DNA of 64,000 nt, taken from NCBI GenBank assembly GCA_004431415.1, contig QPMI01000398.1:8431-72430 (forward strand), given 5' to 3'. A program made the translations under genes and the position numbers. Shown here one piece after another: positions 1 to 27,380 of the stretch. Every line of letters starts with the position of its first letter. The stretch's first letter is position 1. The stretch comes from Cyanophora paradoxa CCMP329 (lineage: Eukaryota; Plantae; Glaucophyta). Below the pieces are notes generated by a model that had not been told where the DNA came from, searched no databases, and worked only from the letters and a program-made list of their open reading frames with translations.

Positions 1-3000
1 AAAAGTCGTGTGTTGCTCCAAGGTAAATGTGTTAAATATGCGGTGCCTGAATGCATTCCACTGGGTATATTGTATTCAATCCAAGCGGTAGAAGTTTGGT
101 CATCAGTTTCATTATTATGTGCATAACCACCATAACTATAATACGGATCCCATGAGGTGCCTGTCCCAAATGTCCAACTTCCGGAATAGTTATATGGATC
201 ATTTCCCGCAACAGCGCCATCCTCTTCATAAAACTTTGGAATTGAATAACCATGTATTTGTAAATTTGTTGTAGCATTAATAGTGGGTGCTGTAATGGTA
301 TTATTCACCCAAAAGTTACCATTGTTATAAGACTTTAAAATTGCTCCATCTGCTGAGTTTCTGAATTCAATTGACACACCATCACCATTTGGTCTCCCTC
401 GTATATATGTGCAATCGCCACTACCAAACCAAATTCGCTCGACTGCATCTGTTGATTTTAACCATGTGTTAGTTGTCCATTTTGCTGTTGCTGGAAGGTC
501 TGCGGCTGAGTAAAATGATGGTTTACTAAATATATTATCCCAACTTATCAAACCATTCGCGGGCGCTGTTCTACCTACTTCTTTTGTCCATCCAAGCATT
601 CCGATATGAATCCGTCCTTTTTTTGCGAAAATTCCAATATGTGTGAAATTTCCACAAAATACGGATGTCCATAATAAACTCGAATGCCACGCTGTGTCGG
701 CTGTGTTTTGAACATTTTGATACGTATTAACTCTCATTATATAATTCCATCGACCATTGCGATATCCATAAGTATCGAAATATCGCCCATTCGTCCAACA
801 TAAATATTGAATGTGACATGTTTTCATTCCTGCTGGAACTTGACACTGCATATATCCACTGCCGCTTTCATCGTCTGTTTGGTTGCAATAAAAACCCTCT
901 ACTGGGTTATCTGTTGTGGGTTTCCATCCTGTTGTCCAAGCTCCGGCTGGGAATGCTACACCTGTGCTATTCCAACCACTCACCACATCAAACTCTGTAT
1001 ATTTGCCTACATCTGGTTTGAAAGCAATATTATCATAATGAACTAAACCAACATCATTATCTGTTGCCCTCTGTCTGCTCCAACCGAAAACCCCTGTAAG
1101 ATGAATGCGACCTATTCGCCCTTGAACATAAATATACTTGTAAAACTCGCAATTAATTGATACAAACAAGATAGTATTATTTGTCCCATCATGATTTACT
1201 GACTGTATTCCTTGATAATCGTTTACACGTTTTAAGAAATGCTGATTGTTATTGAGAGTCTGACCATAGATATCAAAATATCTGCCATTATACCAAGGCA
1301 TATGCTGAATATAAAATGATTTCATACCTGTGGGGACAGTCCACCTCATAAAACAACCGCTACAATCTTCATCATTTTGTGGTGTTGTATAACATCCTGT
1401 TTGTCCTGTTCTTGGTGACCAATTCAAATTCCAATTATTTGCGCTTCTATCTGTCGAAACAGTATCTAATTGGTCGAATTCGTAACCTTTCGGTATTGTG
1501 GTTCCGCCAATTTGTAAAGTGGTAGCGTTAACGGTTCCGGTGACGGTTCCACCTGTAAGAGGTAAATAATTCGCAAGAGCCGTAGTTAATTCTGCATCCG
1601 TTGTGTAACTGCTTAAATCCGCGGTCGTAAGATATCCTTTATTGGTTAGGTAATCATCTGTGACCACACCTGAAAGGGTTGTATTGTGTAAGTTTTTCGC
1701 CGCCATTCTCTGATTGACTTCTAAGGCGCCACCTGATAACGTTTTAATCCACGCCATCTCACATCTTCCGTGATCATCTGTGGGTCGTCCGGCAAGAGGG
1801 ACATAATTGAATTTTGAACGGGTAAATATAAGTTTGGGCCTTGATGCATCAGTAGCGCTTACATCTGTTACGTTTATCTGTATGGCGGCGTCTTTATCAT
1901 CATATGCTGCTGGATCAGATGGAAGAGCTGGTAAAGTCGATGTAAGAGTTATTTCGTTATCGTAATAACTTGTTAAATAAATACCTGGTTGAGTGTCCAT
2001 TAAACCAAAATTTCCGCCTGCTGCAACTACCTGTGTTCTTGTAGGTGGACGAATATATAATTCACCTTCCATAGTTGTGCCTGCATCTATTCCTTTTCGA
2101 TTCACGTAATATGCACTTAATAGTAATCTTTCTGCGATGTTAATGTTTTGGTAGAGACTCACACCATTTGTCCCATCATTCATAACATTTCCTGCTGATG
2201 CAAAAGTAGGCTGTTGATCTATTTCGTCCCAATCGTGCCTGTGTGTCGATGGTGTAAACGTCAGAGGGACGTTATCAATTTCTCCCCAATCGTGCCTATG
2301 GGCGCTGGGTGGAAACGTTAAAGGCACATTATCGAGATCGCCCCAATCGTGACGATGTAAAGCTGGTGGAAACGTTAAAGGCACATTATCGAGATCTCCC
2401 CAATCGTGCCTGTGTAAATCTGGTGGAAATGTTAAAGGTACGTTATCGAGATCTCCCCAATCGTGCCTGTGTAAATCTGGTGGAAATGATAAAGGTACGT
2501 TATCAAGATCTCCCCAATCGTGCCTGTGTAAATCTGGTATAAATGTTAAAGGTACGTTATCAAGATCTCCCCAATCGTGCCTATGGTCTTCTGGTGGGAA
2601 TGTTTCGGGTTGATCTGGGATATTCTCCCATCTAAAATAATCTTCTGTTACCACTCTTGAAATATTTTCGTTGTGAATGTTTTTCGCTGCTGCTCTTTGA
2701 TTGATTTCTAAAAGACCCTCAGGAACCCCACCATTATAATTTGTTTTTATCCATGCTACCTCACACTGTTTATAATCGTCACGATTTCCTAAAAGGGTTT
2801 CTGCTGCGAGTTGTTCACGACTGAATATAAGTTTTGGTCTTGATCCGTCCAAATCGCTAACATTTGTTACATTAATTTGTATAGTGGCGTTATGGTTTGC
2901 ATAATTGACTGGATCAGATGGGAGAGGTGGCAAACCCATAGTCATCGGGATATCATCAGCGTAATAACTGGTTAGATAGATTCCTGGTTTATTCTCTTTA

Positions 3001-4529
3001 ACTTCTACACCTCCACCTGCTGCGATCAATTCAATTCTTCTGGGAGGTCTAATATATATTTCGCCTTCCATTGTGGTGCCTGCATCAATTCCTTTTCGAT
3101 TCAGGTAATATTCACTTAAAAGTAATCTTTGTTCGATGTTAATATTTTGGTAGAGACTCACACCATTTGTCCCATCAGTTAAAACATTACCTGTTGATGC
3201 AAAGGTAGGCTGTAAATCGATTTCGTCCCAATTATGCCTATGGTCTTCTGGTGGAAACTGCTCTGGTATTCCATCGATATCGCCCCAATCATGCCTATGG
3301 TCTGTGGGTGGAAATCTATCTGGTTTATTATCAATCTCGTCCCAATCATGTCTGTGTTCCTCCGGCGGAAAAGTCTCAGGTTTGTTCGTAATTGATTCCC
3401 AGTCTACGGTGAACTCCAAGGGGAAGCAAATAGGATCAAAGCCGTCTGGAAGCAGCTGCTCATGGGGAATCACAGGCTGCTCGTACTCGAGTTCTTGAAC
3501 ATCTAAGCCATCAGGAAGTAACTGCTCTTCAGGCTCTGTGTATATTTCGAGTGGGAAAACTTCAATATCAGGCGGCAGGTATTCCTCATGTGGATGCTTA
3601 TAGGGTTCTATCACTGGACGATTCCTGACAGCCTCCCATGATATAATATTTTGACCAAATGGGATTGTCTCATCGGCAACTCGCTCTCGACCTGGTCCAT
3701 CCGGCGTTGGCGGCTTTGGTAGCCCTGGAAGAGGTGGTATAGGTGGTATAGGGACAATAGGTCCGAAGTAGTAGTTGAAAATGTTTATTATCTCCGGTTC
3801 AGTGATGACCTTTTTTCCATCTTGGTAAATCGACGTGCCGTGAATATTTCGCCACTGCCTGGTGCGGAGCCCAAGATCGTAGCTGTCATGCAACGCCGGG
3901 AGCAGGTGCCTATCAGCTTCCATCAGGATCGAGCCAAAGGTGCATCCAGGAATATCTAACCTGGTGGCTGGCTCGGTATCGATTTGATTTACATCAAAAC
4001 CGTATAAAATATTTGCTTCTCGTGCAGCTGTAAAACGTAAATCCCAGGGAAACGGCTGGATTTGTGATGCTAGCACTGATATTCCTGCATCTTTGCCAAG
4101 GAGAATTCGCCCTGTAATGTGAGCCGCAGTCTTGTTTGTGACAGCATTGGATTCATCAATTAGGCGTAGAGCTGATGTGTGGACCCCTCTATCATTTTGG
4201 AGCCTAAAGATTAATCTACCAGAATCATACTTGGAAACAGTGCCTGAGGAGGCAATTCGCAGGTGCCGCGGCAACGCCCTGGATCCAATTATTTCAGCAA
4301 CATAGTTCTCAGCTGGACCCAGACAAAATCTCTGTGCGATATTTGGGGCACCGACGTGTGAATTGCGCAGAATTAACGCAGCTGGACGATTAAAAGCGGT
4401 CTGGTGTATATCCTTGTCAGAATTGTAGTCAGCCAAAATGCTCCCGAATACACGGATATTTATAAGCCGATCATCCACGGTATCTGGAGCTTTACGAAGT
4501 GGCACTGGCTTCTTCAAGATGTAGGACAT
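1..4529 (-). CDS. Giant tail-fibre-like virion protein (>1509 aa, C-terminus off window; absent from ORF track)
   Basis: Manual translation from ATG 4529 (MSYILKKPVPLRK...) stays open to position 3 (...HLPWSNTRL), with consistent frame at both ends. Contains fibre-like motifs PALHDSYDLGLRTRQWRNIHG and YLPLTGGTVTG, 19-aa FPPxxHRHDWGDLDNVP repeats, an internally duplicated domain and tandem C-terminal beta-rich domains. Confidence 0.85.
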   Translation of the reverse strand, partial: MSYILKKPVPLRKAPDTVDDRLINIRVFGSILADYNSDKDIHQTAFNRPAALILRNSHVGAPNIAQRFCLGPAENYVAEIIGSRALPRHLRIASSGTVSKYDSGRLIFRLQNDRGVHTSALRLIDESNAVTNKTAAHITGRILLGKDAGISVLASQIQPFPWDLRFTAAREANILYGFDVNQIDTEPATRLDIPGCTFGSILMEADRHLLPALHDSYDLGLRTRQWRNIHGTSIYQDGKKVITEPEIINIFNYYFGPIVPIPPIPPLPGLPKPPTPDGPGRERVADETIPFGQNIISWEAVRNRPVIEPYKHPHEEYLPPDIEVFPLEIYTEPEEQLLPDGLDVQELEYEQPVIPHEQLLPDGFDPICFPLEFTVDWESITNKPETFPPEEHRHDWDEIDNKPDRFPPTDHRHDWGDIDGIPEQFPPEDHRHNWDEIDLQPTFASTGNVLTDGTNGVSLYQNINIEQRLLLSEYYLNRKGIDAGTTMEGEIYIRPPRRIELIAAGGGVEVKENKPGIYLTSYYADDIPMTMGLPPLPSDPVNYANHNATIQINVTNVSDLDGSRPKLIFSREQLAAETLLGNRDDYKQCEVAWIKTNYNGGVPEGLLEINQRAAAKNIHNENISRVVTEDYFRWENIPDQPETFPPEDHRHDWGDLDNVPLTFIPDLHRHDWGDLDNVPLSFPPDLHRHDWGDLDNVPLTFPPDLHRHDWGDLDNVPLTFPPALHRHDWGDLDNVPLTFPPSAHRHDWGEIDNVPLTFTPSTHRHDWDEIDQQPTFASAGNVMNDGTNGVSLYQNINIAERLLLSAYYVNRKGIDAGTTMEGELYIRPPTRTQVVAAGGNFGLMDTQPGIYLTSYYDNEITLTSTLPALPSDPAAYDDKDAAIQINVTDVSATDASRPKLIFTRSKFNYVPLAGRPTDDHGRCEMAWIKTLSGGALEVNQRMAAKNLHNTTLSGVVTDDYLTNKGYLTTADLSSYTTDAELTTALANYLPLTGGTVTGTVNATTLQIGGTTIPKGYEFDQLDTVSTDRSANNWNLNWSPRTGQTGCYTTPQNDEDCSGCFMRWTVPTGMKSFYIQHMPWYNGRYFDIYGQTLNNNQHFLKRVNDYQGIQSVNHDGTNNTILFVSINCEFYKYIYVQGRIGRIHLTGVFGWSRQRATDNDVGLVHYDNIAFKPDVGKYTEFDVVSGWNSTGVAFPAGAWTTGWKPTTDNPVEGFYCNQTDDESGSGYMQCQVPAGMKTCHIQYLCWTNGRYFDTYGYRNGRWNYIMRVNTYQNVQNTADTAWHSSLLWTSVFCGNFTHIGIFAKKGRIHIGMLGWTKEVGRTAPANGLISWDNIFSKPSFYSAADLPATAKWTTNTWLKSTDAVERIWFGSGDCTYIRGRPNGDGVSIEFRNSADGAILKSYNNGNFWVNNTITAPTINATTNLQIHGYSIPKFYEEDGAVAGNDPYNYSGSWTFGTGTSWDPYYSYGGYAHNNETDDQTSTAWIEYNIPSGMHSGTAYLTHLPWSNTRL
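2226..2632 (-). repeat. 57-bp coding tandem repeat x7 (19-aa HRHDW phage-tail-repeat-like unit); 3 more copies at ~3225-3400
   Basis: cccaatcgtg recurs at ~2228, 2284, 2341, 2398, 2455, 2512 and 2569 (period 57); the minus strand encodes HRHDWGDLDNVPLTFPPDL. Confidence 0.95.
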
Positions 4530-4553
4530 TTTTATATAGGCCTCCTTTTAAAA

Positions 4554-6037
4554 ATGAAGGTGATTCTCTCGTTATCAGGTGGAGGTGCTCGTGGCATAAT
4601 TATAACCAGAATTCTGCAACGGATTGAGGCAATCACTGGCAAAGCGATTCCACAACTGTTTGACTTCGTTGCAGGAACGAGTACAGGGGCAATAATAGCG
4701 GCCGGTTTGGCTATCCCATCAACTCCAGGCTCTGTTCTCGCTTACCGATATTCTGCAGGCGATATCTTGAGTCTCTACCAGACAAACCTGCCAGTAATAT
4801 TTGCGAATCCTAGATCGCTAACGAGCCTGCTTGCAGGAAGCCGTTATGATGCAAACCCTCTGGAGTCAGTGCTACTAGACGTTGCCCAGGACTACACAAT
4901 TGCAGAATCAACAAAAGACATATTAATCACAGCATTTGATACAGTTCGGATGCAGCCCGTAGTTTTCACTAAGGATGGGCCATACTCAAGCACCCTGATT
5001 CGTGATGCAGTTAGAGCATCTTCTGCAGCACCTACATTCTTTCCACCGAAGGTGCTAGGAGACAAGAACCTTGTTGATGGGGCCATCGCCTGTTTAAATA
5101 ACCCCTCGGTTGCAGCACTCAGCCATGCCAGCAAAATTTACGATGCAGAAGATCCAATTGTTCTTGTGAGCATCAGCTGCGGAGAGGTTCAAGCTAGCGA
5201 GCAATTGACTGCAGGTTTTTCAAATGCGGAGACGTCAGGCTGGGGCGCCCTGGGCTGGATCCTATCCCTCTCAGGCAGCCCAATTATTTCTATGCTAATG
5301 GCTGGGAGCGAGCTGGAATCCCACTTTCAAATGCAGGAGCTGCTTCCAGTTGATGCAGATAGGAATCTAACTAGGTACTGGCGCTTAAGTGTTCCGCTGC
5401 CAGCTGCAGTCATGAGCAAGCTTGATGATGCATCCCCTCTAATATTTCTTATTTGATTTCCACAACTGACTTATGGCTGAAACAAACTGAAATAAATGCT
5501 AAAATAAATGCACTCTGCAGCTTTCTATTGGCGAACTACGACCTAGTGAACGATGAGAGACTTATCATATCGTCTACCTTAACAGTTGAGCCTCCATTTG
5601 ATGTCAACTGGTTTATAATTCCAGATGCGAATATCACAAGCAACGACTTCGAGGAATTGCACCCACCTTCTCACGTGCGACCCAACTCAACAGGGTTTCA
5701 GGGTGGCACTTTACCTAATCCCTGGATCAAAGTCGAGTTTCCCAAGCCTTTTGAGCTACATCAAATCATTATGTATGGGCCAGCCTTTGCTGCCGGAGTC
5801 CTATTTAATTTCAGCATTCTGACCAACTTAGGATATTTACGAGACGGGTCACTATTTGAGAATACGGTCCTAGCAAATGTGCTTGCTGCAAACCCATCTA
5901 TGACTGGCTTTGATCTAATGCATAGTGACTCGCATTTGATCACCCCACAGGTTTATAACTATGTGCAAATTATAACAAACGAATTTATAAATGTGAATGC
6001 GTTCCGGCTTGATTTCCGGGGACGTTACCTAAACTAA
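4554..6037 (+). CDS. Patatin-like phospholipase with C-terminal discoidin/F5-8C-like domain (one -1 frameshift at C-run 5434-5437; ~494 aa repaired)
   Basis: Motifs LSGGGARG, GTSTG and LVDGA. Adding one C gives LDDASPSNISYLISTTDLWL and joins ORFs 4404-5456 and 5453-6037. NPWIKVEFPKPFELHQIIMYG resembles the F5/8C signature. Likely start is ATG 4554. Confidence 0.85.
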
Positions 6038-6919
6038 AAATTGCAGTTCACCAGACCATGGCAGGCCATTCAGAGAGACGTCATCACCATCTCTGTCGAC
6101 AATGCGCAGTCGCAAAGAGGTCAGCACTAGGCGCTCTTCGATGGGGATCCACTCGCCGTCATTTTCCTGATTTATATAAACGAACTTGCCAACGTCCTGG
6201 CTCATTTGAATTCGAGCGAGCCCATAATTGCACATTGTTTTGGCCCCGCGGCGAAGCTTTGAAGCAAATGGCCGTAGCTCTTCGCAGACAAGAAAGAGGT
6301 ACTGGTCGCTGTTCATGTCGATTATCTTTGGAAATTCGACAGCATAACCAAGTGGCTCACTCCGCATTCTTCCGGTGAAATCAATGCCGTACTCAGGGTG
6401 AGCAGGTGTAACTGGAATGCCAGCAACCTCGAGATACCGCTCAGCTGCAGTTGCTGGTCTTTGCCCCCCTTCAAGCACGATAGGAGACAGCTGGAGAGAC
6501 TCATTTCGGTTCAGCCCAAGCAGATTCGATAGAGCTTTGAACTGGCAGGTCAGTGTGCAGGAACGGCTGCAATAGGCAGACATTTTCAACGTCTCTGGGT
6601 CTCGAAACAATTTGAAATATGCGATTGAGATCCCTTCTAGCCTAATATTAAACGATAGGCCAAAGTTATAAATATCTGTTTCGCCCAGATTTGCAGTAGT
6701 AATTATGCCAGGCTCAAAAACCGCCAGATTTTCTGTCCCAATGTAGGGAAAGGTGATCGAAAGATACTCATCTTTAATGCTGGTGTAAAGGCTGTTTGCG
6801 AACTCACACTGGGTAAGTCGAACAGCAACTGGATTGATTATAGGTTCATTGATTTCGAGCACAAAGTTTGCCTCGGAATCGATTGGCCTTCTGTCTCTGC
6901 TGTCAAAGGTAAGCCGCAT
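6029..6919 (-). CDS. Minor capsid (penton, single jelly-roll) protein 1
   Basis: N-terminal FDSRDR...F.LEI...VRL...EFANSLY and C-terminal LRLRIVDRDGDDVSLNGLPWSGELQF, typical of PLV/NCLDV pentons. Confidence 0.8.
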   Translation of the reverse strand: MRLTFDSRDRRPIDSEANFVLEINEPIINPVAVRLTQCEFANSLYTSIKDEYLSITFPYIGTENLAVFEPGIITTANLGETDIYNFGLSFNIRLEGISIAYFKLFRDPETLKMSAYCSRSCTLTCQFKALSNLLGLNRNESLQLSPIVLEGGQRPATAAERYLEVAGIPVTPAHPEYGIDFTGRMRSEPLGYAVEFPKIIDMNSDQYLFLVCEELRPFASKLRRGAKTMCNYGLARIQMSQDVGKFVYINQENDGEWIPIEERLVLTSLRLRIVDRDGDDVSLNGLPWSGELQFLV

Positions 6920-6946
6920 TTTTATTCTCTAACTGATATAAAAAAG

Positions 6947-7902
6947 ATGCCTACGGACTACGTCTGCATTGCAAGTCACCAAGCGGAGGAGCTGACATCC
7001 ACCTCGAAATTTAAAGTAAGACTGCCTAAAGTTTATCAGGATGTGAAAGCCGTGCGCTTGGTATCAGCTGAGATCCCCAACACAATGAGCACAATTGATG
7101 TACTCGATCCAGCAGAGGATTTGGTCTTTGACACCTACATATATTGGTGCAAATATGATCCTACTAATGAAGGACCCGACCCACCTCAGGCCGGCTTTGG
7201 AGCGTGGAATAACATTGCAATTCCACCTGGAAATTACGACGTCACCTCGCTTGTGACAGAGATAAACGAAAGGTTGACGGGAACAGGTATCACGTGCACG
7301 TATAATTCAGCGATCAAATTAATAGGGTTCACAGCTAACTTCGAGTTCTTTATTGCTCTGATGTTGCCAACGAACCAGGGTGGGCGGGAAGTCAGAAACT
7401 ACCAGGCCGTTGCAAGGGCTCAGCGAACTGCAAAGCTTCTAGGGCTGCGATCAATTCTACCGATTCGGTCAAAGACATTATCTATAAATACTGAATATAT
7501 AGCAGGCGCTTATGAGCCTGATGTCACTCCCGATGATCATGTGCTCCTACGCATTCCTGAAATTGGTGACCTTGTCAGTATGCCAATACTTCAATACCTG
7601 GCTTCTTTGCCAAAATTAGCATTCCAAACAGCCTTCGTCCAGGCGAGATAGCATACTTTGATTCAACTGAAGCAACTCCTTTGTACAAGTATGTTTATTC
7701 AAAGCTGGACCTCTACTCTGTGACTATTGAGATTTACGATTTTATGCAGCGAATCGCTGATTTAAATGGAGCTCCTGTGTCATTTATTCTCGAAATTCGT
7801 TATGGTCCAGACGAACCCAATGGTGATGTTGTCTACGAGCTCGCAAAGCTTCAGCTCCAGAAAAGATCGAAGACATATCCTTGGATCAATTCGTCAAACT
7901 GA
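6947..7902 (+). CDS. Minor capsid (penton) protein 2 (one -1 frameshift between ~7570 and 7597; ~318 aa repaired)
   Basis: FKVRLPKVYQDVKAVRLVSAEIPNT, IAIPPGNY; the -1 frame continues NTSIPGFFAKI...IEIYDFMQRIADLNGAPVSFILEI. Confidence 0.78.
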
Positions 7903-7977
7903 GCTAAGCTCGCGGCACGCAAGCGAGCCTTGGCGAAGCGCCCAAATTATTTTCTTTCACTGCAATTATATAAATCG

Positions 7978-9365
7978 ATGGATGTTACTCAAAATTTGCA
8001 GCGGCTCGGCCTCAAGGAGCTCCTGACAACTCCGCAGGAAGCTAAGGACTTTTTCATGAACAATGAGCTTATGTTAGGTCTAACCAGCCAAACAAAGCCT
8101 GTGCGTGTTGTTGTCAACCCAAGCAATGACTATGGAGACTGCTTCGGAAAGAGGGTTACTTATTTCCTGCCCCGGTACAATTTCCTTCAGGGGCTCGAAC
8201 TGCAGTTCACCCTTCCAGAGTTGACTGCATTTACTGGTGACACTGACCTGGTTCGCACTGGTTATTTGCGATCGGTTGGTGCTCTTGTAAAGCGAATCGA
8301 AATCAAATATGCTTCCTACAGCTACATTGTCCCGAGGACTGGCTTGTTCACAGCGCTCTGATTTTCAATGATGATGCTCAGCTCAAAAAGAAGTACCGAT
8401 CCGGTGGCTGGCTCCATGGAACACCACCTCAGGGGAGCAATCGCGCTGGAGGTATTTTCAGTGTAAAGATCCCCTGCCCCTGGGAGGGCTCAGTGCTTCC
8501 AATTGGTGCGCTATCGGGCGAGGTGTCTGTGGAGGTTTGGTTCCGTGACCGTGCCCAGGGCTTCGTTGAGACCAGCTATGGTGGTAGGTTTGTAGCAGAA
8601 TATGCCGCAAACGGTGATGCCTCTAAAGATGATGGCCTTGGTAGTGTTGGAGCCGCTGCTGCTTCCCCTGCAAACATCGGCCAGAATATAACTCCCAATG
8701 TTCTCAGTGTCACCCCTGCCAATCCGGAGCTTTCGAATCCAAAGATTATTGCTCATTGCATCAACGTTGATGAGGCCACTTTTGCCCAGGTGATTGAGAA
8801 AGTCAAAACGTCTGGAATCGCAATTCCCGCTACCGATGTCGGCTGGGTTGATGCTGATTCAATTACTTATGCTGGTGCGGGAGCGCCCACCCGGATTAAT
8901 CTGTCTCAAATCAGTGGACTTTGCTACGGCCTGTTCGTTAGCATTCGCAAGCAGCCAAACATGAACCAAACTGATGGAAAACACAGTGTCCTCAAAACCG
9001 AGGCTAATGCTCGCGATATCACTATTTCCTGCGAATTGAATGGCCAGAGACTTTATTCAAATGAGCCCGTTCCTCTCCTGCAAGGTGCCGAACTCATCGC
9101 TGATGTCTTCAAGTGCTCCAATCTCGATGCTCCTTTGAATCGATATGTTCTCACTGGTTTGCCATTTTGCATTAGTGGGGATAAATCGATCCGAAATGCT
9201 GCTCAAACTGGTTTCGTAGATCTCACCAACAGCAGCAGCTGCTTCCTGAATATCATGAATCCTGCCGCTTACGATGCAAACAACAAGATTTACGTCCAAA
9301 TTCGCGCTCTCCTGCACACTGTCCTAATTGTTGATGCTGCGGGTCTTCGTAAGGTGAACCTCTAG
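7978..9365 (+). CDS. Double jelly-roll major capsid protein (one -1 frameshift at C-run 8331-8333; ~462 aa repaired)
   Basis: FGKRVTYFLPRYNFLQGLELQFTLPEL and LPIGALSGEVSVEVWFR resemble conserved DJR MCP segments. Adding one C gives VPEDWLVHSALIFND and bridges ORFs 7930-8361 and 8493-9365. Lies between pentons and ATPase. Confidence 0.8.
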
Positions 9366-9416
9366 TCAAAGGGTTGCGGTTGTGATCGCCTGCGAATATC
9401 AGTACTTAATTTTTTG

Positions 9417-10148
9417 ATGGATGAGCTCGCAAAGTTCCAGCCGGGAGTTATGAGGGTTCCCTTCAAGGCCCTGTTTATTTCGAAGTCTAATAGCGGCAAG
9501 TCTTTCTATTGCACAAAGCATCTGCTTCGACTGCTGTATACAAAGATCAATCGCGTCGTAGTGTTTACCGCCACCAAATTCAACGGCGAGTATGCTGGAA
9601 TAACTAATGAGCTTTACGACGATTTTCAGCCATCTATTGTTGCAGAAATCATTGATTCACAGCGAAAGTTGATCGAAAACAAACAGAAAGCGCCGCAGAT
9701 ATTGCTAGTCTTGGATGATCTTGTTGCTGCCTCTGAAACTGTGGATCTGCGAAACAGCAAGACTGTAAATCGACTTTTTACACAAGGTCGTCATTTTAAT
9801 ATCAGTACCATTCTTATGACGCAAAAGCTTACAGCGTTGAGTCAATCTATAAGATCGAACAGCGATTATTGCTTTTTCTTTAGTTATTCAAATCACACCG
9901 AACTTGAGGCAATATATAGAGAGTTTTCTCACCTACCAAAGGATGAGTTTATAGCCATGTTCGAAAAGTGGGCGCATGATTATCAGTGTCTAGTCCTTGA
10001 TGGGACCAAGTACGATACGGCCTGGTACGTTGATAAGGCAGTTGAAGATAAGAGTTTTCGTTTTACAAAATGGCTAAGACAAGAAGAGTCTAAAAAAGAA
10101 GAGTCAACGCCTATTCCCAAAAAGAAGCGTTTTAAATTCTTATCTTAA
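9417..10148 (+). CDS. A32-like (FtsK-HerA) DNA packaging ATPase
   Basis: Walker A-like SKSNSGKS, Walker B LLVLDD, GRHFNI arginine motif, MTQ and IRSNSDY. Confidence 0.93.
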   Translation: MDELAKFQPGVMRVPFKALFISKSNSGKSFYCTKHLLRLLYTKINRVVVFTATKFNGEYAGITNELYDDFQPSIVAEIIDSQRKLIENKQKAPQILLVLDDLVAASETVDLRNSKTVNRLFTQGRHFNISTILMTQKLTALSQSIRSNSDYCFFFSYSNHTELEAIYREFSHLPKDEFIAMFEKWAHDYQCLVLDGTKYDTAWYVDKAVEDKSFRFTKWLRQEESKKEESTPIPKKKRFKFLS

Positions 10149-10157: not shown

Positions 10158-10787
10158 ATGGCAAAAGGGATTCCTAAGAAGGGATATCGTGAAAGACGCA
10201 AGGTTAATGTTGTTGAACCACTCGTTGAAAGTGGGTCGACTGAAGGCGCAGCTGTTGCTAATCCTAGCGGGGAACTAGCTAGTGACCCCAAACTAAATGC
10301 ACCCGTAGCGAAAACAATTGCGTCCGCAGCAGCTAACGCAAGTGCGGTTGACGACCGACAAAGCCAGGCTAAAACTGTAAACGATATGCAGTCTGATATC
10401 GATGATGATGCTGCTCGAATTATCCAAGCAATGGCGTCTGAACCACGTTATTCAGGGCCAAAAATCAAGACAGCAACAGTATCAAAGAGTCAGATCGAGG
10501 AACTAACAGCTAAATTGCGCGACCTGGAGGCTCGATCGGCTAATATCGAGAGCTACGTAAAAGAGAAAAAAGAACGCGCAAAAATTCGGGAGATGCTTCG
10601 TAGCGAGATGTTTAAACATCGACCTATGGATGTACCAGATTTGCGCTATTTGAAAAACGAAAAAGAGAAGGCTTCACAAGCTCTTGATGATGCAGCTGTA
10701 AAACCAGCAACTCCAAATGTTTTCGAACCAAATGCTACTGGGTCGCAACTGAAGAATGCGATGGGAGGGAGAAGGATTAGGTTTTGA
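10158..10787 (+). CDS. Hypothetical viral protein with basic termini and central coiled coil
   Basis: 209-aa ATG ORF directly after the ATPase; EELTAKLRDLEARSANIESYVKE heptads; no family recognised. Confidence 0.65.
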   Translation: MAKGIPKKGYRERRKVNVVEPLVESGSTEGAAVANPSGELASDPKLNAPVAKTIASAAANASAVDDRQSQAKTVNDMQSDIDDDAARIIQAMASEPRYSGPKIKTATVSKSQIEELTAKLRDLEARSANIESYVKEKKERAKIREMLRSEMFKHRPMDVPDLRYLKNEKEKASQALDDAAVKPATPNVFEPNATGSQLKNAMGGRRIRF

Positions 10788-11052: not shown

Positions 11053-11370
11053 ATGGACAGTGCTGAACTAACGACTGCTTCCCGTCCACGAGGCAGGCCT
11101 CGCAAGAATTTTGAGAAGCCTGTGCACATACGTAGTGAGGTTACGCCAGAGATACTTGCAGAGAGACGCAAAAGACGTGCAGATCTGCAGCGAAAGCGAT
11201 ACCATGAAAATCCTGATTACCGGCAGCGGCAGATTGCTGTCTCCCGTCAATATAACCTTGCACACCCTGAACGAAAACTTGACAACGACCGAAAATACCG
11301 AGAGCGAAGGCGCACTGAAATTAGGTCGCTAATTGCGGCGGGCATAGTTTCCAGCGACCTTACTTCCTAA
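11053..11370 (+). CDS. Small basic AT-hook protein (putative DNA-binding)
   Basis: ATG 11053 preceded by TATATAA; RPRGRPRK AT-hook followed by an Arg/Lys-rich helix. Confidence 0.6.
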   Translation: MDSAELTTASRPRGRPRKNFEKPVHIRSEVTPEILAERRKRRADLQRKRYHENPDYRQRQIAVSRQYNLAHPERKLDNDRKYRERRRTEIRSLIAAGIVSSDLTS

Positions 11371-12258
11371 TCGCAGTGAAGGCTCCCCTGCAACCTCTAG
11401 TTTTTTGAGCTCACGAGCTTGCCGACTTTGTCCGCTATACTTTTTCGTTTCAATGAGACCCTCGCGCCGTAGCTGTTGCTCTTGCTTTGCTTTGGCCGCA
11501 GCTCGTTCTATTTTTGACTGATTTGGAAGCTGTCTCGGGGCTCGAATTTCTGAAGGCTTGATTCTACGGCTTAATATCTGTCCCTCTTTGGTTGCGACCC
11601 TTATTCGGTTCCTGTCCTGTCCCACGACTGTGTACGTCTCCTTGCTCGGTTTCGTAGCTCCCTTCGCAAAGATGCTGCTCTTAGGCTCCAGTATCTGCAC
11701 CTCAGTCCCTGGCTTTGGTAGATTCAACGCGTCTCTCTCAATGTCGTTCTGTCGTTGACGCACCTGGTGCAGCTGGGCAGCGATCTGCGGGTGATCTCGC
11801 ATCCAGGCTGGTGAATACTCTCTGCCAAAAGAGCTGTGTTTTGTTTGATTGTATGCCTTGATCAAAGCAGGCAGCCGGGAGAGAAAATTCGGCGACCCTC
11901 GTTCCTCTGTGTCTGCCTGAATCAGGGCTCGCAATGTCCGTGCGAATCGATCGATGATTGCTAGCTTGTCGCCTTTCGATATGTGATCATCCTTAGCGAC
12001 GTCGGTGTGCATCGAAAATGAATTCTCTTCTGCCATTGCCCGCACAGCAGCCGTATTAAAGCCATTGTCGCCAGAAAAACCCCAGATCCCCGGCAGCTGA
12101 GCGATGAATTTCGGAATCTGTTTAGCATCTTCAAGCTTTCTGACAACTGCGAATCGAGTTGCAATCTCAATCGCTGCAAATAGTCGAAAACGTCCAATGA
12201 AAAGTATGTCGACTTGATATGCCCCTGGTGGAGCAGTAATTTTAAATGAGGGCGCCAT
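11329..12258 (-). CDS. Retroviral-type (rve) integrase of Polinton type
   Basis: YQVDILF...IEIATRFAVV, SGDNG, IIDRFARTLR, YNQTKHSS...SP, IFAKG..P..SKETYTV. Confidence 0.85.
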   Translation of the reverse strand: MAPSFKITAPPGAYQVDILFIGRFRLFAAIEIATRFAVVRKLEDAKQIPKFIAQLPGIWGFSGDNGFNTAAVRAMAEENSFSMHTDVAKDDHISKGDKLAIIDRFARTLRALIQADTEERGSPNFLSRLPALIKAYNQTKHSSFGREYSPAWMRDHPQIAAQLHQVRQRQNDIERDALNLPKPGTEVQILEPKSSIFAKGATKPSKETYTVVGQDRNRIRVATKEGQILSRRIKPSEIRAPRQLPNQSKIERAAAKAKQEQQLRREGLIETKKYSGQSRQARELKKLEVAGEPSLRLGSKVAGNYARRN

Positions 12259-15200
12259 TAGTTATTCGAAAGATTTTTATAGTGACCTATCGCCCTGGTG
12301 TGAACACCATCCTCGCACAGGAATCGCTTGGTATCAAGCGGGTGTAGGGCTTGCTTTGATGTCCGCTGTAGCCAGATCCGGTGCTGTTTCGATCTGAAGC
12401 CGAGAATTCCATCTACGTTGCATGATATGCCCCCAAAGATGCAGTCGTAGTATCGCTCTCGTGTCAGCGAGCTGCTGAACGTCTTGTTAACGCCCTTGCA
12501 CTTGTGCACTTGTGATTCCTCTGTGCTCATATAGTACGATTTCGGTCGGTTCGCGATCCACTCAAGCATTTGTCTGCCGCCACACTCGTCCTTGAACAGC
12601 CCGGGAACCTTGCCCATCGATCGTAGTCGCTGCACTTCGTCTTCTGACATCCCTTCAAAGAACGGGTGTCTCGTAGGGTATTCACTAACATCTAGCTCGT
12701 TTTTGATTTTGCGAAGGTCCTCGTATAAATTTTCGGTCTCAATCTCAATTATGAGACTGTCTGTATCTGTACCAAGAAGCTTTACTCGCTCGCCCCAAAG
12801 CGCTTTCAGCACCTGGTAGTAAAACCGATACATATGTAGCTTTGATAGATCAAGGATTGTGAACCCACAGTAGATCGGTTTGTTGAGTTTGTATTCGCTC
12901 TTTCGCTTATTTACATACACCAAGTTTTCGTCATATATAGCGACCTGTCTCAAGCGGTTCGGCTCTGTGTTGATTTTCGCTAGTCGTTCTCCTGTTGTCA
13001 CAAGCTCTGAATTGCAATGCTTGCGTACGTTTTCCATCGTTTTCCCAAACACCGCATTATTTAGTAGCTTATAAAGATCTTTTTCATACGGGAATTCTGC
13101 CTGTTTTCGCTTCAGAGTGTTCAAATCGATATAGCTCTCTAGCCATGCACTTTGCTCGAACGAAAGCACTCTGTGTATTCTAGAAACAACCATTCCCATC
13201 GACACATAAAACTGTAGCACTCGTGCATCAACAACATAGTTCTTCTTTGGCAACAGGTTTGGAACCAGCTTTGGCGTTCTCTCGATCCCGCTTAGTTTTT
13301 CACGCTCAATAGTTTCTCGCTGCGCCTCTGATAGGTGCTCTTTTGCAATGCACATTCGCTCGGGAGCTAGTGGATAATCACTAAAATAATCATGCAGCTC
13401 TTCTGGACAATGCATGTCAACCTCCAGAGAAAAACCCCTTGAACCATGAACATCAAGGTCTGTTATATACAGTTTAGGATCTGTAATACCTCTGACGTCC
13501 TCCCATTTGAAGTCCCCTGTCGGTAGTTTTTGTTTCATAGAAAACCCATAAAGGTTGTTCGCATCGAGGTACAGTAACCAGCCCTGCTTTTTTCTGTGAC
13601 CCACGATGTACTTATCAATCCAGGCATTATTAGCTCGAGCATATCTTTTTGATATCATAGAGATTCCTCCCGGATCCCTTTCTCAATAAAGCGGTGCATA
13701 TCTTCTTGTCCTTCGTAAAATAGCTCCAGTTGCTGACCAGTGTGCTTCAAAGCCGCCTGCCACGAGAAACCTGGAATGCTCATAAAGTAGCTTGGGTCCA
13801 GCTTGTACGTCTCCATACACGTGTCACGGTAGTTTTCAAATATGTCTCCTAGAAGAGCTATGTCTGTCTTCATGTACTCCAATGTATAGTCAGCCATTGT
13901 CCTGCAACCAAGCTCACGCCAGACCGATTGAGCGTGGGCATAATCATCCCGAGAGCACTTCGACTGCTTTAGCTCGTTGTAAAATTGGCGGCGCCCTGGT
14001 AGTGATGTCTCTGCAAGACGATCCCAGCCAGTAATGTACTTGTATGGATAGACACCCTTGCGCGTCATTAGTTTGAACCGTGTCTCGCTCTCATGTAGTG
14101 CACGTGTGATATTCTTTTTCACATCAGGTACTGCAGCCGCAAGGCTATCGAGACTACCCTGCAGGTGCTGAGCAGAGTCACGGAAAACGTAAATGCCGTA
14201 TGTGAACTGTGACATACGCTCGCTGTTCTGAAACACCTGGTCAAACTTCGTCGACAGTAACTCACGAGGACGTAGTTTGCGCTCAAGCCGCTTCCTTGCA
14301 TTTTTCTCATGATCTGCGCTCAGCTCACGCCCTGCGTATTTGGCTTGAAACTGGCGCTCAACCTCAGCTCTGAATGCATTTTCTGCGACTTTCCGCCGGT
14401 TGTAGCCTGCTGCCAAAGCCCTCACTAATAGGTGAAAGTCAAATCCTCGGCCATTGTGAAAGAATATTGGGACGGCGGCAGCTTTTGCTCGTCGCCTGTT
14501 GCAGGCATTGCAGGCCGCTCCAAGATACTGCCCGGAGTCGTGGCAGTGATCTCGATTTTTATCTTTGACTTCTTTGAACTCGCTTCCACACATATAGCAC
14601 GTTTCTGCTGCTTGAAAGGAGCGCTCTTGTTCCTGCGTAATCTGCATCGTCGCTTTCTCCTCCAAGATTCCCTTAAACTGCGGCTCTTTTTCATCTAGCC
14701 AAGTAACAAATGCCTCTGCTGACTCCTCAGTTTGCGAGCCCATATGCGAGAACCAAAACTGCTCCTGTTGCCTCGTCTCTGAATTTTCAATGCTTTCTAC
14801 AGTTTCATTCGTTCCTTGATTTTGTCCCTTGTTTAGGATAACTAAGCATCCGATCGAAGATATTGCGTGAACGCCTAGCTGCTTCGTCTTTGCTGGACTC
14901 TCGGTCTGCAAAACAGGTAGAGTCATTGTTTCCGAGTCAGCATATCCAACAAGCCTTTGCCGAATCGTCTTCTCGAAGCTGTTGAATTTTATAAAGTGCT
15001 CGCCCTTTTTCGGAAGCACGTCCCTGGCGTGCTCATCTCGATCAAGGCACCGGTCGTATTTAAGATGATTCTGAAAGGCCTCGTCTGAGCCAAAGCCGCA
15101 CTGGCAGGCCAAGCAATAGTGCTTCGCATTCGACCCATGCTTTCCAAACAGTCGCGATATGTTCTTTATCCACAAATAATGTCCCACATCATTCCCGTCG

Positions 15201-16300
15201 CCTGCTGGCACGTACAGTATCGGTATAGCATCCGTTGCTGCGCTAATGTGGATCGGAACGATGTCTTGCTTGTCTAGCGCAGTCGTGTAGACGCAGAGCT
15301 TAACATTATTCGCACACTCAAATTTGCTGAACATTTTCGAATCGAGTGGCGTCGGATACGTGAGCATTGTACAATCTAGCGATGCCTCATGCTGCCGATA
15401 GCTTCCTGCATGCCTCGAATCCACCCCTGGGGCCAGCGGATTGCGCGCTGCGAGGACAGCATATTTAAAGCACTCGTTGTTTGGTGCATTGATATTGATC
15501 AAGGCCTGCTTGAGTGCAAGCCAGCTCGGAAGTACAAACCCGCGTCCGCGGCCGCCCATACGTCTGAAGTATCTAATCACGGTAAAGCGTAGCTTAATCC
15601 ACGTCTCGAAGGCGGAAGAATCACGGCTCTTTTCCTGCGCAATAGTATCTAGCTCTTCCAGCTGTGAGCGGATCGTCTCAACAACGTCTGAGCCTGGGAG
15701 TATGCGGTAAAATTTCCTGTGCTCAATCACTACTGCAAGCGCTGAGTCTTCGTTAGGCTTGCGATAGAGTCCGACTCCTGAGACCTGCAAAGCTATGCCC
15801 ATTCGATCCTGACTTGCTAATTCTTGCTGCACGCTCGCAAACGCCACTGCGCCTGCTCTGAACCTCGCATTATTTTCGAGCTGCGCCTGCATCGACGTGA
15901 CTCGGCCTGTTCCACGTGAGGGCCGGTACTCCCAGTCAGCGTATGTCCCGTTCAGCGCTGTTCGTGTCGTCACTGTGCCGTCCTCCTCTGCAATTTCAGT
16001 TTCGCTGAACTCGCTCACGCTCGGATCGGGCAGCTCTGAAAATCCTGCTACAATCCCCTCAGCAATAGCAAGCTCTAGCCGTGCAGCTGCAACTGGTCTC
16101 GGCGGCCTCGGTACTGTTGACAGCTCGTTCAAAAGTGATGCGTATTTTTGTAGTGTCGGCAGTCGCGTGCGTGAGCCACTCGCACTGATGCGCTGCAGTT
16201 TGTTTCTGAATTGCCCATGAATAAACCTGCGATTGTACAAAACCTCGGCCTGGCCTGCTATCTGCTCTTTGAGCCGCGCGATCTCAAACCGTCGCTCCAT
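12258..16300 (-). CDS. polB: Protein-primed family B DNA polymerase (one -1 frameshift at 13669-13671; ~1347 aa repaired)
   Basis: ExoI YADSET, ExoII FHNGRGFD, ExoIII YMKTD; polymerase motifs YLDANNLYG, KLLNNAVFGK and GTDTDS; endonuclease-VII-like insert CYMC...RDHCHDSGQYLGAACNACN; C2H2 finger. Adding one G restores GIRGGISMISKRY. Confidence 0.95.
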
Positions 16301-16904
16301 TTAACAATAGCACTCCAAAAGATTTTCAGAGAAAGCGCGCAACCAACCGCTCGTTCCTATAGGGCGGTGCGATTCCTTTATAACATGTCACTGAGGCACA
16401 TTGTGTGGTAGATCGCAGCTGGTGCTGCTTGGAAAACTGATAGCTGAGTTGGCGCTCTTGCCGCAGCGATGTAAAAGCATACGCAAATGCATTTAAATTC
16501 GAATTCTAGTAGCGCTTATAACACTACAGTAAGCAGTCTTAGAAGGCATGACGTTTTGACCCCGTAAACCACGGTTCCTCGCGACTGAGATCGAATTGGA
16601 CCAAGCCGCTAAGTATGCTACAGTTTTATGATCTATAAGTACGAAATCCGCAGCGATCGTGTTCAGGCGCAGCAGCGTTGCTGAGATTCTTAATCGTCGG
16701 GTTTGACGACTAAAATGTATGGCGGCTTGACCTCATCACAGAAGCGCACAGGGCGCCGGCCAAAGCGTAAGCATGCTTAGTATGATGCGAAAGAACGATA
16801 AAACAAGCCTCCAGCGCTGGGCGCCGCAGCAGTTCCGAGCTTTTGAACGTTTTGCCCCGAGACGTTCACCCTAGCCGGCGTGAGCTTGACGGCTTGGTCT
16901 CCGG

Positions 16905-16965
16905 CTCGGTCTCCGGGATCCGGCTTGGATCCGACTCGGTCTCCGGGATCCGGCTTGGATCCGGC
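16905..16965. repeat. 30-bp tandem duplication near provirus edge
   Basis: ctcggtctccgggatccggcttggatccg twice in tandem. Confidence 0.8.
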
Positions 16966-17001
16966 TTGAGCTTGGCGGACGTGACGCGCGCCGAAAGGAC
17001 G

Positions 17002-17063: not shown

Positions 17064-17115
17064 TGTGTCTCGCGCCGGCCCCGCGCATTCGAAATCTCAC
17101 TCTCTCAACACCACG

Positions 17116-17954
17116 CTGGATCCTAAGCAGCCGCGACAGTTCAAGACTCCCGAGAGGAAGCTAGAACAGAATCGGCGCTACAAGAAGTCGGAGTTGGGCA
17201 AAGCTGCGAGACAGCGGGAGAACGCGAAGCACAGGGCTAGAACCGCTGCCGCAAAAGCGATAGCTATGTCGTTGCGTACAGATCTAGAGAAGAGCTTGCT
17301 TGCAGAGGCGACCTACGAGCACGGACGCATGGCGACGGACGCGCAGGATCCGGACGCGCCTTCAGCCCTCGGGAAGCGGGCGCGCGAGGCGGACAATGTC
17401 GATGCTCTCCGCAAGGAGCTCGCGGATATCAAAGCAAAGCTCGCTAAACAGGAGCAGCGCAATGATTGTGACCGCATTGATGCTGAAATAAGGCAGGCGA
17501 TTGCAGCTGCTCGTGATGGCTTCAACTCGCAGCACCTAGACTTTCTCTTCAACCTACGCCGTAATTTGATGGTACGCCACCGACCGCCTGGCAGTTTAAC
17601 GCTATCAAATGCCAGCGACACCGCCAGGCAACACGCGAGTCCGCGGGGTTCGCGACGAACGCGAAGATCTGGACCATGTACAACAAACACTGGACAGAGC
17701 TCCTTAAGCTCGTGCGTACCACTTGTTACATGGCTTTCAGTTATGTTCAGCGGTCCATAACCTGCGCAGCATCGACTCTACGAGGAAGCCGACACGGATC
17801 CGAAGGCCAATGCGGAGGCCGAGGCGGAGGCAGAGGCCGAGGCAGAGGCCGAGGCGGAGGCCGAGGCAGAGGCCGAGGCGGAGGCCGAGGCAGAGGCCGA
17901 GGCGGAGGCCGAGGCGGAGGCCGAGGCGGAGGCCGAAATGGAGGCCGATACGTA
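17116..17954 (+). CDS. Probable spliced gene: basic/coiled-coil protein ending in an (AE)n tract
   Basis: Open frame from CTG 17116 (first ATG 17266). Two plausible GT-AG introns (~17572-17635, ~17712-17769) give ...HRLYEEADTDPKAN(AE)n...MEADT*. Structure inferred by eye. Confidence 0.4.
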
Positions 17955-20692: not shown

Positions 20693-20744
20693 TGTGTCTG
20701 CTCGCGGCAGAGACGAGGGACGCCGACGAGGGAGGGAGGCGGGG

Positions 20745-21410
20745 GCGATGTAGATCTCCGGCCGAGCTTCCACGCGGGAAGGCCAGCCAAGGTCTGATGT
20801 CTCCGGGGCTCGCGGCGTCCGCAGCGCGGCGGAGGCGAGGGGGGGAACCGGGGAGAGGGCGGGGGTGGGGCGAGGGGGTCGGTTCGAGGCGCTGCACGTA
20901 GATCACCGGCCGGGCTTCCGCGCGGGAAGGCCGGCTGCGATCTGAGGTCTCCGCCGAGGCTCACAGCGTCCGCAGCGAGGCGGAGGCCGGGGAAAGCGCC
21001 GAGGGGAGGGCAGGGACGGGCGAGGAGGTCGGTTCGAGGCGCCGCACGTAGATCACCGGCCGGGCTTCCGCGCGGGAAGGCCGGCTGCGATCTGAGGTCT
21101 CCGCCGAGGCTCACAGTGTCCGCAGCGAGGCGGAGGCCGGGGAAAGAGCCGAGGTGAGGGCGGGGACGGCGCGTGACGGTCGGCACGGCGTCGACGCGCG
21201 ACGGCGGCCGAGGGAAGGAGTAAAGGGTGCGGGAATTGTCGTCGGCGACAGGCGGTTGTCGGCCGACGGGCGGGAGTGAGCGGGAGAGGTGATGACGGGA
21301 AGGGTCCGAGGAGCCGAGGGCAGATCACCGACCGGGCTTCCACGCGGGAAGGCCGGGTGTGATCGGTAGTCTCCGGCGATGTTCACGCGTCCGCAGCGCG
21401 GCGGAGGCGT
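20745..21410. repeat. 150-bp tandem units with hairpin core in the 5' leader of the Gag-like ORF
   Basis: Near-identical units start at 20881 and 21031, with degenerate copies at ~20745 and ~21320; core gatcaccggccgggcttccgcgcgggaaggccggctgcgatc is largely self-complementary. Confidence 0.85.
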
Positions 21411-23003: not shown

Positions 23004-23206
23004 CCGATGCACGGCAGAGGCCAGTCCAGGGTTTGTGGGAGTAAAAGTTGCAGCTAACTGAGCTAACTCAGCTAAGCAGCACTGGGGTACAGGCAAACTT
23101 GGAGGGAGTGGCGCTGAGGTGGACGCACGTTGGGTCAGCAAGAGACGTAGCTAGCTAGAGAGCGTGTCGGCGTCGCTTGCCGGCACGCGGGGAGCCCAGG
23201 CGCAGC

Positions 23207-26007
<2,801 letters not shown>

Positions 26008-27362: not shown

Positions 27363-27380
27363 TCATGATGCGCCCGCCGG

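Follow-up and report, generated by a model that had tools for sequence, protein, structure and literature searches.

A probable modular phage-like fiber gene with ten HxH repeats in a Polinton-like element of Cyanophora paradoxa

The probable fiber gene and its host element

The window (the whole 64,000-nucleotide stretch of Cyanophora paradoxa CCMP329 DNA analyzed here) begins inside a multi-copy Polinton-like element that encodes a patatin, an A32 ATPase, and a protein-primed polymerase and resides in a GC-rich, intron-dense host genome. One end of the element, at about 16.3-17 kb, falls within the window. The Polinton-like assignment is based on matches to PF04665 and PF03175, a protein-primed polymerase (pPolB) match to viral contig L011, and the contrast in GC content between the element (0.39-0.53) and its host flank (0.55-0.79). 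The longest gene of the element is a minus-strand ORF that is absent from the ORF track because it runs past the window edge. Computational translation yields 1,509 codons without a stop, bearing out the unbroken frame claimed in the preliminary description, and every motif listed there lies at its claimed place. The fiber ORF, its parts, and the neighboring genes are as follows.

3..4529, minus: fiber ORF, at least 1,509 aa, open at the window start
3765..4529, minus: N-terminal domain (aa 1-255), no family, likely capsid anchor
3402..3764, minus: Pro-rich linker (aa 256-281) and acidic Pro/Glu stretch (aa 286-376), with one half-degenerate W..V..RP...H.H unit
3213..3401, minus: shaft block R1 (aa 377-439), three 19-aa W..I..(K)P..FPP..HRH[DN] repeats matching PHROG tail families
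2631..3212, minus: domain A1 (aa 440-633), orphan, putative knob
2214..2630, minus: shaft block R2 (aa 634-772), seven 19-aa HxH repeats
1650..2213, minus: domain A2 (aa 773-960), 64% identical to A1
1491..1649, minus: neck with YLPLTGGTVTG (YLPLTGG at aa 988), placed by sequence and motif position
1002..1490, minus: domain B1 (aa 1014-1176), predicted CBM35/CBM6/MAM-type beta-sandwich
513..983, minus: domain B2 (aa 1193-1339), 54/152 residues identical to B1
237..512, minus: spacer C, 92 aa between B2 and B3, matching one S74-bearing B-domain protein
3..236, minus: domain B3 (aa 1448-1508), cut off by the window
4554..5456, plus: patatin-like lipase (PF01734, E 1.6e-25), divergent, start 24 nt from the fiber start
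6029..6919, minus, and 6947..7902, plus (two frames): two genes that we take to be penton-like from motifs and position; only Pfam match DUF5901, E 0.06
7903..9365, plus: likely major capsid gene, in two frames in the window copy, so labeled from size and position
9414..10148, plus: A32-type packaging ATPase (PF04665, E 3e-10)
11329..12258, minus: presumably integrase-like, from retroviral-type motifs; no Pfam match
12258..16300, minus: protein-primed DNA polymerase B with an endonuclease VII insert, in two frames in the window copy

Both polymerase halves match one intact ORF of contig L011. The candidate frames for a double jelly-roll major capsid and for pentons (6029-9365) have no match in Pfam, apart from the DUF5901 hit, or in NCBIfam, PHROG, or PDB. 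A discoidin reading of the ORF at 5453-6037, suggested by a motif, found no support in searches. Three features of the fiber ORF were absent from the preliminary description: the acidic Pro/Glu stretch, the 92-aa spacer, and half-repeats that follow B1 and B2.

The start of the fiber ORF is in some doubt because only 24 nt separate the divergent fiber and lipase starts. Met203, the only other early methionine and the site of a GC3 bump, was rejected as a start: 15 of the 25 differences in aa 1-202 are synonymous, and most of the contig depth shows a different codon at Met203 itself. The ORF has no signal or membrane segment (maximum 19-residue hydropathy 1.16). Three read sets presumed to be RNA gave no match, one (X21) over the whole gene and two (X22 and X24) over 3560-4620, a result that speaks neither for nor against expression. 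Around the DSYDLG motif at aa 215, the segment aa 191-241, with DSYDLG..RQWRNI, gives weak phage matches (phrog_36881, E 0.004; another, E 9e-3). None of 7,996 candidates scored in a whole-ORF homolog search, which was length-limited and is weak evidence, and a peptide-pattern search found no relatives of the N-terminal domain, the B region, R2, or the capsid-like frame.

The distal two thirds of the ORF are AT-richer than the N-terminal part, with a GC content at fourfold-degenerate sites of 119/458 (0.26) in aa 440-1509 versus 80/194 (0.41) in aa 1-439 (p 2e-4). The value for ten further frames of the element is 680/1604 (0.42), with one of them (10158-10784) also at 0.26. The compositional break itself, earlier read as a hint of module swapping, therefore holds.

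Sibling copies of the element allow the frame to be followed within the family. In aa 1-313, 23 of the 37 listed sibling differences are synonymous and none makes a stop. Some sibling contigs carry a 9-nt in-frame deletion in the linker/acidic stretch (3402..3764), and short contig joints among sibling copies give a hint that repeats and modules were gained or lost in frame; these joints are the source of the hints that favor the earlier proposal of a repeat-tunable length. Because 4.5 kb run without a stop, synonymous differences are in excess, and indels and joints stay in frame, the sequences indicate that the fiber frame has been under selection in the family at least until recently. The same evidence speaks against a dead product, such as a relic in a decayed insertion, and all homology points to virion fibers rather than to a non-virion role, such as an intracellular metal-sequestering protein. 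Splits in the polymerase gene, the capsid-like gene, and one penton-like gene of the window copy would fit a relic, but we consider such a product very improbable. With several core genes split, the window copy itself may not make particles.

Shaft repeats and duplicated putative knobs

Blocks R1 and R2 consist of three and seven exact 19-aa HRH[DN]W repeats, which confirms the ten HxH repeats of the preliminary description and appears as a 57-nt period at the DNA level. The ORF contains 11 HxH motifs, ten in the repeats and one HPH at aa 312, a number reached by none of 10,000 shuffles (mean 1.5, maximum 8). Ten of the 16 PHROG families matched by the repeats are tail families. R2 matches 521 of 50,697 phage records, with minor tail proteins in the top rows, and HxH is kept in 265 of 294 such units of 70 relatives, in which the most frequent spacing is 19. 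Among solved structures, the repeat profile matches the Bxb1 tail collar fiber gp4 (9d93, E 3e-16) and the pyocin fibers 6cl5 (E 6e-5) and 6cl6 (E 8e-4); the pyocin match covers one 24-residue unit, with single-sequence E values of 0.008-0.016. The phage-fiber-like nature proposed for the repeats is upheld by these matches. A check against the Pfam phage-tail repeat went the other way, as neither the ORF nor R2 matches PTR (PF12789) at the gathering score, a domain that many R2 relatives carry.

The pyocin alignment provides a structural precedent for metal binding. The aligned histidines are positions 243 and 245 in a chain of 372 residues whose last is residue 691, and they correspond to His562 and His564 by offset arithmetic from the chain end made in this analysis. 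His562 and His564 are described as iron ligands of the homotrimeric R-pyocin shaft in PMC6116203, so the window repeat aligns with an iron-site unit of the metal-binding HxH shafts of the pyocin and T4 gp37 type, in keeping with the metal-binding role that the preliminary description gave for HxH motifs. The R1- and R2-type pyocin fibers (PDB 6CL5, 6CL6; PMC6116203) have in common with the window ORF a W..L..KP.TFPPS.H.H shaft unit with an HxH pair and, as predicted for the window ORF, a layout in which shaft blocks are combined with knobs in tandem and a lectin-like sandwich at the distal end. However, the pyocin fiber has a single iron site and a single terminal lectin, whereas the window ORF has ten units and at least three predicted sandwiches. 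There is no sequence match beyond the unit, and the window element lacks a contractile tail. Bxb1 gp4 (PDB 9D93) and Streptomyces phage Kaine gp25 possess tandem 19-aa repeats in the same register with 44-54% identity, but actinophage minor tail/collar fibers are about 350-420 aa long, with phage-specific N-termini and no A or B domains. Passages of PMC13033339 and PMC13252515, and a text search of PMC13419713, yielded nothing on metal sites in Bxb1 gp4. Overall, the window repeats are homologous to phage and pyocin fiber shafts at the sequence level.

The domain reported as duplicated at a 999-bp offset is indeed present twice, with A1 and A2 identical at 120 of 187 aligned residues (64%). 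Their nucleotide identity is 90% in the first 40 codons and 60-70% past codon 60. Searches with A1 and A2 found no relatives, and an AlphaFold monomer built from two sequences gave no usable fold (pLDDT 29). A porin likeness among language-model neighbors (0.93) was discarded as uninformative, given low recognition and 131-139 shared features.

Distal B domains

A profile seeded from B1 recovers B1, B2, and B3 with E values of 3e-62, 3e-41, and 1e-14, consistent with the claim of at least three related beta-rich domains, the third cut off. The end of the neck, NATTLQIGG..IPK, reappears ahead of B3 as NATTNLQIHG..IPK, and a W..I..KP half-repeat is present after B1 and after B2. Spacer C matches the S74-bearing B-domain protein P0022 at E 1e-7 (computed within the set of collected sequences only).

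B1 and B2 have no Pfam match up to E 10, and a profile search of the PDB returned no CBM. The B1 model, built from 74 sequences, is confident (pLDDT 87, pTM 0.81). Its best Foldseek matches are CBM29/32/6 (E 7.5e-5, TM 0.45), and VIA-align places it close to 3nqh (Z 12.1, rmsd 2.2, 113 aligned) and CBM35 (Z 10.4-10.6). The B domains are predicted to be CBM35/CBM6/MAM-type beta-sandwiches, and the model favors the lectin-like fold anticipated for the distal domains. The beta-sandwich predicted for the window domain resembles that of CBM35, CBM6, and CBM29, which have the galactose-binding-domain-like fold (Z about 10-12, with an rmsd of 2-3 Å over 113-125 residues), but at no more than 15% identity, without a Pfam match, and in a fold also found in MAM and Eph domains.

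Protein-binding MAM, Eph, reelin, and APC10 domains share this fold at equal Z, and none of the fold matches exceeds 15% identity, which makes sugar binding a putative function. The equal Z of MAM, Eph, and reelin would also suit a fiber in which the B domains have protein ligands or a purely structural role and specificity comes from the A domains, which are more diverged in their distal parts, or from the C-terminus, which lies outside the window. We judge this unlikely, since the best Foldseek matches are CBMs, the language-model neighbors are CBM35/CBM6 clusters (0.79-0.81, lead level only), and the conserved W1079, Y1084, D1086, R1101, R1141, and H1143 would suit a sugar site.

The B domain has 118 relatives. 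Collagen, S74, PTR, or head-fiber Pfam domains occur in 13 of 25 hand-picked relatives, and Peptidase_S74 in 7 of 25 scanned. Crude fiber motifs are found in 39 of the 118 and in none of the other 79. A hydrophobic segment at the start of 22 of the 118 indicates that membrane-anchored or secreted proteins carry the domain too. The B region has no match among the phage records searched; one relative is encoded on a phage contig, with genes for tail fiber, sheath, and tube around it. Several close relatives reside in collagen-rich proteins of long metagenomic contigs (292 kb and 128 kb; P0002 and P0005 clusters), and peptide patterns found no relatives of P0002, P0029, and P0016 themselves.

The collagen-rich relatives may point to exchange with large viruses. 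Together with the relative in a tailed-phage operon, they would be compatible with a trimeric fiber whose B modules bind glycans of a helper giant virus or of bacterial prey, on which the particle hitchhikes; PMC12724248 proposes a prey-binding route for virophage DSLV2. However, PMC12220804 and the Gezel-14T preprint (10.1101/2022.07.28.501842) argue for independent entry of fiber-bearing Polinton-like viruses (PLVs), and the element has its own lipase beside the fiber gene, making a hitchhiking particle an unlikely alternative.

A putative virion attachment fiber

We consider it probable that the ORF encodes a trimeric, iron-pinned virion fiber with side-mounted glycan-binding modules. Three chains would intertwine into a rod and hold one metal ion, likely iron, at every HxH repeat. 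As in the R-pyocin shaft, the six histidines surrounding an ion on the threefold axis would come in pairs, two from each H-R-H. At about 2.5 nm per repeat, R1 and R2 would span about 8 and 18 nm, with A1 and A2 as trimeric knobs between shaft blocks and the N-terminal domain docked on a penton. The tandem distal B domains, as modeled, may grip glycans of the host-cell surface. The half-repeats after B1 and B2 suggest that the trimer continues past them with the B modules attached at its side, which would put nine or more binding modules on each fiber. Of the tandem receptor-binding heads proposed earlier, the lectin-like fold is thus favored by modeling, but the terminal placement is not, since the B domains look like side modules along the shaft. 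The adjoining patatin lipase may aid membrane entry after attachment, and unequal recombination between repeats or modules of sibling copies could alter length and valence.

Published accounts describe bacteriophage-like fibers as common in PLVs (PMC12220804) and report the fiber (Ltf) and a lipase in Gezel-14T particles (10.1101/2022.07.28.501842). As in the window, the fibers in these sources and the tail fiber of a Tetraselmis PLV (10.1101/2025.10.09.676808) are the longest gene, exceed 1,000 aa, and are modular, combining phage tail repeats with lectin-type domains in tandem. They adjoin a lipase and genes of the capsid module, which in the window are candidates. Since such fibers are already published, the window fiber is a known kind of protein, and what is new is the mix of parts. 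Searches for a published element matching the one in the window yielded no specific counterpart. In those sources, PLV fibers carry laminin G3, collagen, adenovirus-type, PTR, BppL, gp36, H-lectin, or discoidin domains, whereas the window fiber has unnamed CBM35-like binding modules without a Pfam match and orphan knobs. It has no S74 chaperone inside the window; a C-terminal one probably lies past the window edge.

How PLVs find their cell has so far mostly been inferred. The B domains are small, foldable modules with 118 relatives and no Pfam family, and their ligand is directly testable. For the shaft unit, iron binding has a structurally solved precedent, and fiber length and module number can be compared among the sibling copies of a single genome. 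In a bolder and rather doubtful scenario, the many endogenous copies in this one host together act as a library of adhesins that recombine with one another. Their iron-loaded shaft would be tunable in length and would carry modules, in varying number, of an undescribed family of glycan-binding domains common to tailed phages and large viruses, along with an orphan knob of possibly new fold; the target would be a helper giant virus or bacterial prey, not the host. If true, ten iron sites per fiber would bring the phage 'iron-ligand' idea into the realm of eukaryotic viruses.

Fibre frame, module order and start codon

The minus-strand frame at the beginning of the window is unbroken, as claimed, with 1,509 codons free of stops on translation from 4529 to the window start. 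ORF lists do overlook it, solely because its stop does not lie inside the window. Its modules follow the order given in the preliminary description (repeats, A1, repeats, A2, YLPLTGGTVTG and at least three B domains):

4529 to window start, minus strand: fibre ORF
aa 1-255: N-terminal domain, first module
After aa 255, in order: Pro-rich linker, acidic stretch, three 19-aa repeats (shaft block R1), domain A1, seven repeats (shaft block R2), domain A2
Distal to A2, in order: YLPLTGGTVTG neck, B1, B2, 92-aa spacer, start of B3

The ORF contains 11 HxH motifs, a number reached in 0 of 10,000 shuffles, and 10 of them lie in the ten repeats claimed, present as 3 + 7 units. The feature is real and its earlier reading correct.

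Met203 was considered as an alternative start for two reasons: residues 1-450 contain just two methionines, and on the opposite strand the lipase gene begins 24 nt away from the fibre start. Sibling variation comes from public DNA runs of one organism, at least 20 of which contain the region, present as many diverged contigs (1,486-1,790 contig records per run match the 18 kb, at under 90 to over 99% identity). Of 119 differences on 3560-4620, the 40 best supported were used, 37 of them within the ORF, with adjacent changes classed one by one. In this selected subset, synonymous differences make up 15 of 25 in aa 1-202, where 25% would be the rule-of-thumb expectation (p 2e-4), and 8 of 12 in aa 203-313; no difference in aa 1-202 creates a stop. 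The sole indel among the differences listed is 9 nt. This synonymous excess in aa 1-202, together with a Met203 codon altered in most of the contig depth, disfavours Met203 and favours coding from Met1.

HxH shaft and orphan A domains

The repeats (consensus W..[IL]..[KV]P..FPP..HRH[DN]) have the phage-fibre kinship ascribed to them. Tail families account for 10 of the 16 matching PHROG families, R2 is matched by 521 of 50,697 phage records, and the minor tail protein of Streptomyces phage Kaine shares the register of the R2 repeats. The proposed Pfam phage-tail-repeat check gives no match anywhere in the fibre ORF; PF12789 is present instead in many of the 69 database proteins matching R2. 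HxH is kept in 265 of 294 such units across 70 relatives.

A repeat profile built from R1, R2 and 16 of these relatives, run against solved-structure sequences, finds four, of which three are pyocin fibre chains and one is Bxb1 tail collar fibre gp4. The unit matched in 6cl6 has its histidines at chain positions 243 and 245; with construct residues 323-691 in a chain of 372, these are His562 and His564. PMC6116203 reports that this pair makes up the octahedral iron site, located on the trimer axis of a shaft 70 residues and 93 A long, which bears out the metal-binding precedent. Iron bound by HxH motifs is well established for phage fibres (PMC11705849). Scaled from the pyocin shaft, each repeat would span ~2.5 nm.

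The duplication of domain A at a 999-bp offset holds, with 120 of 187 aligned residues identical. Relatives of the A domain were looked for and none was found, and structure prediction yielded no usable model. By analogy only, the A domains, placed between shaft blocks, are reminiscent of the pyocin fibre's tandem knobs. DNA identity between A1 and A2 (3033-3212 versus 2034-2213) declines along the domain, from 90% over codons 1-40 to 80% over codons 41-60 and 60-70% beyond; recent conversion between the duplicates is possible.

Distal B modules and sibling variation

B1 and B2 share 54 of 152 residues. A search of 1.84 billion representatives finds 118 relatives of the B region, with one copy in 111, two in 6 and eleven in 1. 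The 5,217-aa database protein P0001 carries eleven spaced B domains and three YLPLxGG-like motifs. B1 and B2, aligned with 72 of the shorter relatives, gave an AlphaFold model with a pLDDT of 87. The top Foldseek matches of this model in the PDB are CBM29, CBM32 and CBM6, in line with the lectin-like fold anticipated; in VIA-align it scores Z 12.1 against the 3nqh C-terminal domain, and reelin, MAM, CBM35 and gingipain adhesin domains all fall at 10.2-10.8. On these matches the predicted fold is that of a carbohydrate-binding module, for which protein-binding domains score equally, and sequence profiles confirm no CBM family.

Viral structure matches are mostly tail proteins (E 3e-4 to 3e-3). 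Collagen, S74, PTR or head-fibre domains occur in 13 of 25 relatives chosen for rank, length or motifs, while the full set of 118 shows crude fibre motifs in 39 and a hydrophobic N-terminus in 22. One relative sits within a contractile-tail gene cluster; source annotations of the others are hypothetical or unnamed, except for one collagen/S74 label. Because a W/Y..I..KP half-repeat terminates both B1 and B2 and the neck preceding B1 reappears ahead of B3, the sequence suggests that the B domains are mounted on the side of a trimer that runs on past them.

The distal part is indeed AT-richer: fourfold-degenerate GC is 0.41 for aa 1-439 and drops to 0.24-0.29 in all blocks after that. Ten further frames in the element together give 0.42, with one of the ten also at 0.26. 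The drop is consistent with a different origin of the distal part.

Of 43 contig joints over the 18 kb, 15 are listed, ten of these within the fibre gene; five fibre-gene joints have known intervening letters, two being versions of one joint. Joints of 57 nt give one repeat fewer (2 of 3 DNA runs) or one more (3 of 3), a 495-nt joint skips B2 and a 603-nt joint skips A1 (3 of 3 each), and all these net lengths are in frame. The short sides measure only 31-47 nt at 85% likeness, and the same pattern could come from contigs with longer repeat arrays or from paralogous modules, so the joints hint at the proposed variation in repeat and module number between sibling copies while allowing other sources. 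At position 1648, the end of A2, three contigs from one run diverge (~40 unlike letters); siblings may have a different distal part from there onward.

Polinton-like element and known fibres

GC is 0.39-0.53 over the first 16.5 kb and mostly 0.6-0.78 in the remainder of the window. Besides a patatin (E 1.6e-25) and an A32 ATPase (E 3e-10), the element encodes a protein-primed polymerase B carrying an endonuclease VII insert. The polymerase is split over two frames, and both match one ORF that is intact in a viral contig of 16.7 kb (L011), with which the element has only this gene in common. Frames that we take, from position, size and motifs, to be capsid-like, penton-like and integrase-like have no database match. 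Genes in two frames in this copy are penton-like (6947-7902), capsid-like (7903-9365) and polymerase (12258-16300), and the 4.5-kb fibre frame is intact; the splits reflect either decay or assembly error. In three DNA runs, contig depth adds up to ~3-4x as much over the structural half (1-10.8 kb) as over the integrase/polymerase half (10.8-16.8 kb); siblings may have the capsid arm in common and differ in the replication arm, although depth is no copy number. Near the likely right end, an approximate boundary where GC goes up, are a 30-nt tandem repeat (16890-16968) and a basic 231-aa ORF (17065-17760).

Within 4554-6037 (plus strand), the patatin ORF adjoins a 194-aa ORF with a candidate discoidin-like motif, a label supported by none of the tools tried. 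Patatin-discoidin fusions are known from some Polinton-like viruses (PLVs; PMC12220804).

Directly outside the element lies a gag-like 754-aa ORF with a CCHC zinc knuckle (18509-20773, minus strand), and 50.7-56.0 kb (minus strand) holds a LINE-like retroelement with endonuclease, reverse transcriptase and RNase H frames. The flank includes a CDKL-type kinase gene with GC-rich, very short introns and is read as that of a flagellated microbial eukaryote. This gene lies in a 7.1-kb host segmental duplication (22222-29334 versus 41584-48669, 99.1% identical). The context agrees with the endogenous 15-30 kb protist elements described in PMC10120064.

According to PMC12220804, most PLVs encode modular proteins longer than 1,000 aa that bear phage-fibre and cell-attachment domains; PTR repeats, laminin G3 arrays (up to seven) and one case of PTR plus H-lectin are among those described. 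Gezel-14T particles contain fibre and lipase (10.1101/2022.07.28.501842), a Tetraselmis preprint names a discoidin protein and a tail fibre that is conserved (10.1101/2025.10.09.676808), and virophage fibres are proposed to bind cyanobacterial LPS (PMC12724248). No paper pairs 'Polinton-like' with 'CBM35' or with 'HxH' in the full texts searched, which take in a minority of subscription papers. The supplement text of PMC12220804 does not contain 'CBM'; its figure S6 image, the preprints' supplements and the remaining subscription papers may list the protein or domain.

The product of the fibre ORF probably works like a pyocin or phage tail fibre. As far as testable, it belongs among the known phage-like fibres of PLVs. 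To these it adds tandem modules of an unnamed family with a predicted CBM-like fold, an HxH shaft with ten putative sites and an orphan domain that, by analogy, would be a knob.
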